From the NCBI RefSeq assembly GCF_057098645.1, contig NZ_CM169472.1: a stretch of DNA of 64,000 nucleotides, one strand, 5' to 3'. Both the position numbers and the translations under genes were made by a program. Under the pieces are notes generated by a model. That model searched no databases, had not been told where the DNA came from, and saw only the letters and a program-made list of their open reading frames with translations. How positions within the stretch are numbered: the stretch's first letter is position 1; each line of letters opens with the position of its first letter. Of the stretch, positions 1,792 to 16,934 are shown piece after piece.

Positions 1792-2946
<1,155 letters not shown>

Positions 2947-3051
2947 TCAACAGCGGAGATCCGTTAAGGATCTCCGTGAGACTAATAGAATGCCTGATGC
3001 GCTACGCTCATCAGGCATACAGGACTTCCGCCACTACATTAAGGAAAAGTT

Positions 3052-3411
3052 ATGGTATCCGCACTCATCACTGTCGCCGTTATCGCCTGGTGTGCGCAAC
3101 TGGCCTTAGGCGGCTGGCAAATTTCTCGTTTTAACCGTGCCTTCGACACACTATGCCAGCAAGGGCGGGTTGGCGTGGGCCGTTCCAGCGGGCTCTTTAA
3201 ACCGCGGGTCGTGGTCGCCATCGCCCTGGACGATCAGCAGCGCATCGCCGACACCTTGTTTATGAAAGGACTGACCGTCTTCGCCCGACCGCAAAAAATT
3301 CCCGCAATTACCGGTATGCATGCGGGTGATTTACAGCCCGATGTGATCTTTCCCCATGATCCACTATCACAGAATGCTCTATCATTGGCGCTTAAACTGA
3401 AACGTGGATAA
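3052..3411 (+). CDS. gutM: glucitol operon activator GutM
   Basis: 119-aa ORF with N-terminal hydrophobic segment, positioned between srlD and srlR. Confidence 0.85.
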   Translation: MVSALITVAVIAWCAQLALGGWQISRFNRAFDTLCQQGRVGVGRSSGLFKPRVVVAIALDDQQRIADTLFMKGLTVFARPQKIPAITGMHAGDLQPDVIFPHDPLSQNALSLALKLKRG

Positions 3412-3477
3412 TTTCGTTGTGAATGTTACTTGCTTGCGAAGTTATCATTTTGAAACCTAAATCAGGTAATCACGCCC

Positions 3478-4251
3478 ATGAAACCTCGTCAGCGTCAAGC
3501 CGCCATTCTGGAGTATCTGCAAAAGCAGGGAAAATGCTCGGTTGAAGAATTGGCGCAATATTTTGACACCACAGGCACAACCATTCGCAAAGATCTGGTC
3601 ATTCTGGAACATGCCGGAACCGTCATTCGTACTTATGGCGGAGTGGTGTTGAATAAAGAGGAATCCGATCCGCCTATCGATCATAAAACACTCATCAACA
3701 CCCACAAGAAAGAGCTGATAGCAGAAGCTGCCGTTGGTTTTATTCATGATGGCGATTCGATCATTCTTGATGCTGGCAGTACCGTTTTGCAGATGGTGCC
3801 TCTGCTCTCGCGCTTTAATAACATCACGGTGATGACCAACAGCCTGCATATCGTCAATGCGTTATCTGAACTGGATAATGAACAAACTATCCTGATGCCA
3901 GGCGGAACGTTTCGTAAAAAATCGGCCTCATTTCACGGGCAGCTGGCAGAGAATGCCTTCGAGCATTTCACCTTCGATAAATTGTTTATGGGCACCGACG
4001 GCATCGATCTCAATGCGGGCGTAACCACCTTCAACGAGGTTTATACCGTCAGTAAGGCAATGTGCAATGCCGCGCGCGAAGTGATTTTGATGGCGGACTC
4101 ATCAAAGTTTGGCCGTAAAAGCCCCAACGTAGTTTGCAGTCTTGAAAGCGTCGATAAGCTGATTACCGACGCAGATATCGATCCGGCGTTTCGTCAGGCG
4201 CTGGAAGAGAAAGGGATCGATGTGATCATAACCGGAGAGAGCAATGAGTGA
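3478..4251 (+). CDS. srlR: DeoR-family glucitol operon repressor
   Basis: 257-aa ORF; N-terminal HTH ([20 protein letters not shown]) and DeoR C-terminal sugar-phosphate binding domain. Confidence 0.9.
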
Positions 4252-5209
4252 AGCACTACTGAACGCGGGACGTCAGACGTTAATGCTGGAATTGCAGGAA
4301 GCAAGCCGTTTACCGGAACGTCTGGGCGATGATTTTGTTCGCGCCGCCAATATCATCCTGCACTGCGAAGGCAAAGTGGTGGTTTCGGGAATTGGCAAAT
4401 CGGGCCACATTGGTAAGAAAATCGCCGCAACGCTTGCCAGTACCGGCACACCGGCTTTTTTTGTCCATCCGGCAGAAGCGCTGCACGGCGATCTGGGGAT
4501 GATCGAAAGCCGCGATGTGATGCTGTTTATCTCTTACTCCGGTGGCGCGAAGGAACTGGATCTGATTATTCCGCGTCTGGAAGATAAATCTATCGCGCTG
4601 CTGGCGATGACCGGCAAACCGACGTCACCGCTGGGCCTGGCGGCGAAAGCGGTGCTGGATATCTCCGTAGAACGCGAAGCCTGCCCGATGCACCTTGCGC
4701 CGACCTCCAGCACCGTCAATACCCTGATGATGGGCGACGCACTAGCGATGGCAGTCATGCAGGCGCGCGGTTTTAATGAAGAAGATTTTGCCCGCTCCCA
4801 CCCAGCTGGGGCACTGGGCGCTCGCTTGCTGAATAAAGTGCATCATCTGATGCGTCGTGATGACGCTATCCCACAGGTAGCGTTAACCGCCAGCGTGATG
4901 GATGCGATGCTGGAACTCAGCCGCACCGGTCTGGGGCTGGTGGCGGTATGTGACGCTCAACAACAGGTACAAGGCGTCTTTACCGACGGCGATTTACGTC
5001 GCTGGCTGGTTGGCGGCGGCGCACTCACCACGCCAGTTAATGAAGCGATGACGACAGGCGGTACCACATTACAGGCACAAAGCCGCGCCATCGACGCCAA
5101 AGAGATCCTGATGAAGCGCAAAATCACTGCCGCACCGGTGGTAGATGAAAACGGCAAACTCGTCGGCGCAATTAACCTGCAGGATTTCTATCAGGCCGGG
5201 ATTATTTAA
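4244..5209 (+). CDS. gutQ: D-arabinose 5-phosphate isomerase (SIS + tandem CBS domains)
   Basis: 321-aa ORF; SIS motif [29 protein letters not shown]; overlaps srlR end by 8 nt. Confidence 0.9.
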
Positions 5210-9498: not shown

Positions 9499-9580
<82 letters not shown>

Positions 9581-16854: not shown

Positions 16855-16934
16855 GCCGGATGCGGCGTGAACGCCTTATCCGGCCTACATGTCGCACGAA
16901 CTATGCAGGCCCGATAAGCACTGCGCATCGGGCA
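16855..16934. repeat. REP palindromic unit(s) downstream of ascB
   Basis: GCCGGATGCGGCGTGAACGCCTTATCCGGCCTAC followed by a degenerate second unit; explains artefact ORF 16704-16928. Confidence 0.75.

Follow-up and report, generated by a model that had tools for sequence, protein, structure and literature searches.

Rho-dependent transcripts end just past stable stem-loops without U-runs, and such stem-loops shield the transcripts from PNPase and RNase II (Dar & Sorek 2018, PMC6061677). A related arrangement within operons is provided by REP elements: REP325 attenuates transcription, in a partly Rho-dependent manner, and stabilises the upstream gene, and in tandem pairs with a REP between the genes expression is biased towards the upstream one, with effects that are context-dependent and no general gain in half-life for genes preceding REPs (2026 REP preprint). 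At the DNA level, REPs are reported to bind gyrase, IHF and DNA polymerase I (PMC1525189), and a REP sequence with a CT core, ATCAGGCCTAC, is the natural target of IS621 (PMC11208160; also PMC1525189).

Here we examine the spacer between srlD and gutM in the sorbitol (glucitol) operon srlA-srlE-srlB-srlD-gutM-srlR-gutQ, which lies in a stretch of 64,000 nucleotides (the window; NCBI RefSeq assembly GCF_057098645.1, contig NZ_CM169472.1). An original prediction, made from the sequence alone, had not recognised that the two hairpins of this spacer are objects of different kinds: the second is a REP repeat and the first is not. No new kind of element is involved, both the REP and the transcript 3′ end next to it being already in public data sets. 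A literature search found no paper treating the srlD–gutM hairpin locus specifically and none naming srlD together with REP sequences; a mention of srlD in an RNase P paper was set aside, the gene serving there as a strain marker only.

The srlD–gutM spacer

The features of the locus, in window coordinates, are as follows.

2167–2946, + strand: srlD coding sequence (sorbitol-6-phosphate dehydrogenase), with its TGA stop at 2944–2946; from the list of open reading frames, the K-12 annotation and that of a 99.9% identical genome.
2953–2977, + strand: hairpin 1, a perfect 9-bp stem (2954–2962/2968–2976) with a closing G·U pair, the loop GTTAA and two GATC sites.
2990–3018, + strand: hairpin 2, the REP stem-loop, made of 10 bp, a C·U mismatch, 2 bp and the 3-nt loop UAC.
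2992–3020, + strand: REP unit, a Z1-type palindromic unit, GCCTGATGCGCTACGCTCATCAGGCATAC, matching the canonical GCCTGATGCGCTACGCTTATCAGGCCTAC at 27/29 positions.
3021, + strand: equivalent of a Term-seq 3′ end, 3 nt past the hairpin 2 stem; K-12 coordinate moved through the alignment and verified on the K-12 sequence.
3040–3044, + strand: Shine–Dalgarno-like AAGGA of gutM, 7 nt upstream of the ATG; from reading of the sequence.
3052–3411, + strand: gutM coding sequence (sorbitol operon activator), with its ATG at 3052; from the list of open reading frames, annotation and RNA-seq counts.

The gene names in the original prediction are correct, as positions 2600–3400 are 99.9% identical to E. 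coli O145:H28 genomes in which the genes are annotated srlD and gutM. The spacer between them is 105 nt long, and the Shine–Dalgarno-like site at its end reads AAGGAG or ACGGAG in other strains. Both hairpins are present in K-12 MG1655, whose aligned spacer has one base substituted in a loop and lacks 1 nt between the hairpins. Positions 2600–3400 were found in 5410 of 5426 complete E. coli genomes. Identity reaches at least 99% in only 31 of these 5410 (O145:H28 and relatives), with nearly all others at 95–99%, which makes the srl region an allele class of unusual divergence.

Repeat finding and folding against shuffled sequences place both hairpins where they had been predicted, the span 2991–3017 given for the second being the core of the 2990–3018 stem. 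The arms of hairpin 1, CGGAGATCC and GGATCTCCG, are 9 nt long and 100% complementary around a 5-nt loop, and the pair G2953·U2977 lengthens the stem to 10 bp, with a predicted energy of -18.5 kcal/mol (z = -6.5; 0 of 200 shuffles as stable). Its pattern occurs once in the window, compared with 0.02 occurrences expected. Hairpin 2 has 13-nt arms (2990–3002/3006–3018) that are 92% complementary and a predicted energy of -18.2 kcal/mol (z = -4.8; again 0 of 200 shuffles as stable), and the entire spacer folds at -44.2 kcal/mol (z = -5.1).

Closing a three-way junction around both hairpins in the RNAfold prediction is a helix between GUUCUG (2940–2945, overlapping the srlD stop codon) and CAGGAC (3020–3025), just past the REP; a transcript ending at 3021 would lose this helix. 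A scan of positions 2000–4500 against Rfam (E ≤ 10) found no family at its gathering score for the hairpin region, and a match to NiCo-AnGGAG was rejected as chance (26.9 bits, compared with a gathering score of 64.5). An RNase III site was also judged improbable and rejected, the stems being only 10–12 bp.

The REP element and the private stem

Hairpin 2 is a Z1-type REP element. It carries the body GCC(G/T)GATG... and the tail ...ATC(A/C)GGCCTAC, changed to CATAC in the window; it forms an imperfect stem-loop with an internal mismatch; its unit is extragenic, 45 nt past the srlD stop; and it belongs to a multi-copy family. A 41-nt query around it had a median of at least 40 places per genome, with at least 40 in 3789 records and matches in 5425 of 5426 E. 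coli genomes. Durrant et al. 2024 (PMC11208160) worked with three known REP sequences, and one of them, the canonical GCCTGATGCGCTACGCTTATCAGGCCTAC, stands unchanged at the hairpin 2 position in E. whittamii, in two cryptic Escherichia clades and in many E. coli strains, so that the ancestral allele matches the published REP query at 29/29 positions. The 2026 REP preprint lists gutM of MG1655 as ‘REP-adjacent’ (supplementary Table 10); as the gutM–srlR spacer contains no REP, hairpin 2 is the only REP-like sequence adjoining gutM. The copy of the MG1655 annotation used here has no REP feature at srlD–gutM, but it has none at the malE–malF control either.

Canonical REPs occur elsewhere in the window at 9545–9579 (- strand), 16855–16889 (+ strand) and 60813–60849 (+ strand), two of them Y-type and one a long Z-type. 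All three share GCC(G/T)GATGCG...TTATC(A/C)GGCCTACA with hairpin 2.

Three natural alleles are found at the hairpin 2 site, TTATCAGGCCTAC, TCATCAGGCCTAC and TCATCAGGCATAC. Relative to the canonical sequence, the window and K-12 carry two derived substitutions, T3009C and C3017A, of which strain 13C1065T has T3009C only, and the derived allele with its flanks is matched exactly in at least 3034 records. One substitution turns a G·U pair into G-C, and the other changes GGCCTAC to GGCATAC, adding 2 bp to the stem and altering the conserved tail. Their predicted effects are -2.1 and -2.9 kcal/mol, and jointly they take the stem from -13.2 to -18.2 kcal/mol, at a site where only 10 of the 105 single changes possible would give a gain in stability of at least 1 kcal/mol. 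That both derived changes would strengthen the predicted stem is suggestive, as a post hoc observation with no formal test of selection behind it.

The REP of this spacer is also a target of IS621, an IS110-family element with a bridge-RNA recombinase, which in strain SCU-301 sits at GGCCT^AC of the srlD–gutM REP. The junctions read ...ATCAGGCCT/TGTATT... and ...CAGTATCT/ACAGGAC..., so that IS621 has entered ATCAGGCCTAC at its CT core. The element occupies positions 2577–3870 of that locus (L082, NZ_CP051751.1), equivalent to window 3017/3018, and puts about 1.3 kb between srlAEBD and gutM-srlR-gutQ. In the window and K-12 the REP reads ATCAGGCATAC as against ATCAGGCCTAC, with AT in place of the CT core, and the derived allele may, to judge by this difference in sequence, be refractory to IS621 insertion.

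Hairpin 1 is an ordinary-looking private stem-loop with no match to a curated RNA family. It is not a member of the REP family: it has a median of one place per genome and no REP motif, and it is restricted to Escherichia, where it is present in 5408 of 5426 E. coli genomes and also in the sampled species of the genus other than E. coli. It is missing from the srlD–gutM spacer of every non-Escherichia genus examined, with the exception of one metagenome-assembled genome (MAG) labelled Citrobacter, whose spacer is of the E. coli type and whose GutM is 98% identical; this contig probably comes from Escherichia. An AAGGAU within hairpin 1 might be taken for a CsrA site, but it has its GGA in the stem.

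Transcript ends and RNA levels in K-12

Published data bearing on the spacer come from K-12 grown without sorbitol, that is, from a strain other than that of the window and from the uninduced state. In the Term-seq data of Adams et al. 2021 (PMC7815308), a 3′ end with 4666 reads lies at MG1655 2828590(+), 31 nt upstream of gutM, and its sequence terminates ...CATCAGGCATACA. It is the only 3′ end that the study lists from 2828400 to 2828799 under any of its three growth conditions, so that none is listed at hairpin 1, where the downstream REP would mask one. A further Term-seq 3′ end lies within srlA, at K-12 2826058 (window 488).

Across the 2828590 end, DirectRNA-seq coverage over 800-nt windows falls 3-fold, from 585 upstream to 197 downstream, without bicyclomycin, and stands at 309 and 199 with it (PMC7815308). 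The same study gives this end a modest Rho score of 1.91, computed over these windows, and marks it ‘significant Rho region: Yes’, with an intrinsic-terminator score of 1.5 against a threshold of 3. The strongest Rho signal of the neighbourhood lies about 750 nt downstream, at 2829346 in srlR (window 3777; score 3.7, p = 2e-18). Past the REP the C:G ratio is about 1.3–1.5, a weak bias that is not decisive as a rut-like tract. In these K-12 data hairpin 2 therefore has the properties of a protective stem-loop at a Rho-dependent 3′ end, and hairpin 1 does not, as no mapped end lies just past its stem.

RNA-seq densities were derived from the DESeq2 tables of the 2026 REP preprint as baseMean counts divided by K-12 gene length; baseMean averages several strains and conditions and was not designed for comparison between genes, so the following values, in counts per nt, are indicative only.

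srlA: 9.0
srlE: 10.3
srlB: 9.6
srlD: 19.0
gutM: 1.6
srlR: 3.2
gutQ: 2.6

By this indicative measure the density falls about 12-fold from srlD to gutM, which is the first low-abundance distal gene of the operon. The density of srlD is about twice that of the operon genes upstream of it, an indicative excess of the pattern expected from 3′-proximal protection. In the same preprint gutM is co-induced with srlA (log2 fold changes of 3.6 and 4.1); read-through therefore exists, and the block is partial.

The original prediction had read the hairpins as stabilising or processing structures, or as partial terminators, that set the level of srlAEBD against that of gutM-srlR-gutQ, and had proposed 3′ end mapping and a step in coverage as checks. 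The step is present in the published data, at 3- to 12-fold between srlD and gutM. For hairpin 2 this reading is supported by the end 3 nt past its stem, the 3-fold drop and its partial relief by bicyclomycin, the low intrinsic score and the larger fall to a gutM that remains co-regulated. At hairpin 1 the same data give no sign of a 3′ end or of processing.

Downstream of this junction, RNA-seq density is about twofold higher over srlR and gutQ than over gutM. A promoter-like TTGGCG-16-GATAAT lies at the end of gutM (3385–3412, + strand), and the gutM–srlR spacer (3412–3477) is conserved across genera as TTTCGTTGTGAATG...TTGCTTGCGAA.TTATCATTT. Together these observations suggest that srlR has a promoter or operator of its own inside the operon.

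In our judgement the srlD–gutM spacer probably serves as an internal stabiliser and attenuator, a ‘3′-UTR-like’ module of the srlAEBD-gutM-srlR-gutQ operon. The transcribed REP would fold into a stem-loop lacking a U-tract, and transcripts from the srlA promoter would in part end beyond it, through either partial Rho-dependent termination, within the spacer or past it in the poorly expressed gutM–srlR region, or endonucleolytic cleavage. Trimming in the 3′ to 5′ direction would then continue until exonucleases stall at the REP stem, leaving a discrete srlAEBD 3′ end 3 nt past the stem and protecting the upstream structural-gene message, and polymerases that read through would produce a much rarer gutM-srlR-gutQ message. 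One promoter would in this way supply high levels of transporter and dehydrogenase mRNA and low levels of regulator mRNA. We infer that the hairpins are responsible for both the 3′ end and the fall in coverage, and that termination comes before trimming. Hairpin 1 is most likely a back-up, a second barrier to exonucleases that would keep the srlD reading frame complete if the REP were breached.

Hairpins at the junction across the Enterobacteriaceae

A scan for relatives of GutM gave 70 Enterobacteriaceae loci, and srlD and gutM are adjacent in 67 of them. The 67 spacers range from 41 to 612 nt and cannot be aligned between genera, yet a hairpin domain with an energy of -10 kcal/mol or lower is present in every one, with a median of -0.42 kcal/mol per nt (z = -3.9). 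The elements that form these hairpins differ. Canonical-tail REPs occur in 37 of the 67 spacers, often as inverted pairs, and several others have REP-like bodies without the tail; depending on the genus, a spacer has between 0 and about 14 REP units. Other spacers have unrelated GC-rich stems, for example CGGCCCCG...CGGGGCCG and CCCTCTCCC...GGGAGAGGG. The gutM–srlR spacer of the same loci shows the opposite pattern, conserved in sequence and weak in structure (-0.21 kcal/mol per nt, z = -1.4). The conserved feature thus looks like a stable hairpin right after srlD, whatever element supplies it, and its presence in all the spacers suggests that the structure itself is selected.

BIME-like arrays of 9–14 alternating REP units occupy the spacers of Kosakonia cowanii (locus L053, 612 nt) and Phytobacter ursingii (locus L068, 550 nt).

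Within Escherichia, 7 of the 10 pairs of hairpin 1 are invariant among 16 sequences and the other 3 vary on one side, with 100% of the aligned cells paired. The variable pairs stay standard (G-C/G·U, U-A/U·G and C-G/U·G), and the loop varies freely among four forms, GTTAA, ATTAA, TTTAA and TTAAA. Of the 60 single substitutions that the stem could undergo, just 10 are predicted to be mild, and all 10 are transitions that give G·U pairs. All three observed stem changes are G·U-compatible, which, in a small sample, suggests a constraint that would act on the + strand RNA and not on the DNA palindrome. No double compensatory change was found in the Escherichia hairpin alignment, whose sequences are too similar for a shuffle control to discriminate.

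These comparisons bear on a reading in which nothing is selected: the REP would be a passively carried repeat, selfish or neutral, the 3′ end would be incidental to any stable stem, and hairpin 1 would be a neutral palindrome. REPs are indeed multi-copy and variable between strains, the number of units per spacer changes widely among genera as given above, and the 2026 REP preprint saw no general effect of REPs on half-life. Neutral carriage would, however, leave unexplained the strong hairpin in 67 of 67 spacers despite turnover of sequence, unlike the gutM–srlR spacer; the stabilisation of the stem by both derived REP substitutions; and the wobble compatibility of every stem change in hairpin 1, which is itself kept in nearly all E. 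coli genomes. We regard this reading as rather unlikely.

Less likely still is a role for hairpin 1 in translation, whereby the terminating ribosome would melt the base of the stem, slowing termination, tuning the yield of SrlD or coupling srlD translation to the access of Rho. The base of hairpin 1 lies 7 nt past the TGA, and in the 67 spacers the distance from the srlD stop to the first predicted stem has a median of 4 nt (range 0–12). Liang, Rudd and Deutscher are said to have described such a translational mechanism, in 2015, for REPs lying no more than about 15 nt from a stop codon. The short distance may, however, be due only to the compactness of the spacer. Some of the first stems predicted are long-range pairings, and the density of srlD mRNA, the highest in the operon, argues against strong down-tuning at the RNA level.

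It is very unlikely that the spacer acts as DNA, with the REP as a protein-binding site and hairpin 1 as an operator or a methylation-sensitive site for, for example, SrlR or GutM. Such a role would accord with the reported binding of proteins to REPs (PMC1525189) and with the perfect inverted repeat of hairpin 1, in which GATC occurs twice. Yet the spacer has a single REP and not a mosaic array, three independent polymorphisms of hairpin 1 break the DNA symmetry while keeping G·U pairing on the + strand, the hairpin 1 sequence is missing from other genera that have the same regulators, and the 3′ end is mapped at the level of RNA.

That the hairpins are weak intrinsic (Rho-independent) terminators is hardly credible: although both stems are stable and GC-containing, and a T-rich run follows the spacer hairpin in a few other genera (loci L034, L043 and L048), hairpin 1 is followed by TGAGACTA and hairpin 2 by ACAGGACT, neither a U-rich tract, as the original prediction had noted, a terminator scan of 2700–3500 gave 0 sites, the published score is below its threshold and read-through is sensitive to bicyclomycin.

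Returning to the stabiliser and attenuator that we favour, a wider version of it can be framed, which we advance tentatively and think rather improbable as a whole. The srlD–gutM junction would be under persistent selection for a hairpin across the Enterobacteriaceae, satisfied by REPs, arrays or unrelated stems. In the E. coli lineage with the derived allele the REP would have been ‘domesticated’ by the two stem-strengthening substitutions, with loss of the CT core of the IS621 target and alteration of the tail, and with hairpin 1 it would form a two-barrier module setting the level of GutM and SrlR and the threshold of induction.

The locus is a clean natural example of an intra-operon REP separating an abundant structural-gene mRNA from a scarce regulator mRNA, and it shows a hairpin kept by replacement of elements rather than by conservation of sequence. 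Annotators who meet a stable hairpin with no U-tract between E. coli genes should begin by comparing it with the REP family. The importance of the locus beyond the srl operon is small.

Among known systems, the srlD–gutM hairpins resemble intrinsic terminators as GC-containing stem-loops past a stop codon, and differ from them in the missing U-tract, the published score below threshold and the substantial read-through. The protective 3′ stem-loops of Dar & Sorek (2018) are closer: hairpin 2 likewise has a precise 3′ end a few nucleotides past a U-less stem in a Rho-sensitive region, although the site is internal to an operon and not at its end, and no clear C-rich rut signature follows immediately. 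With the Z1-type REP or palindromic unit, which in arrays forms BIMEs, hairpin 2 shares body and tail, extragenic position, multiple copies and its use as an IS621 target; the window copy differs in its two derived substitutions and in being a lone unit, not an array. Compared with yjdM–REP325–yjdN, where REP325 comprises 12 units, srlD–gutM has one REP unit and an unrelated extra hairpin, and its role is one that we infer. With that module and with malE–malF it has in common a position between tandem genes, a more abundant upstream message, a stem without a U-tract and partial dependence on Rho.
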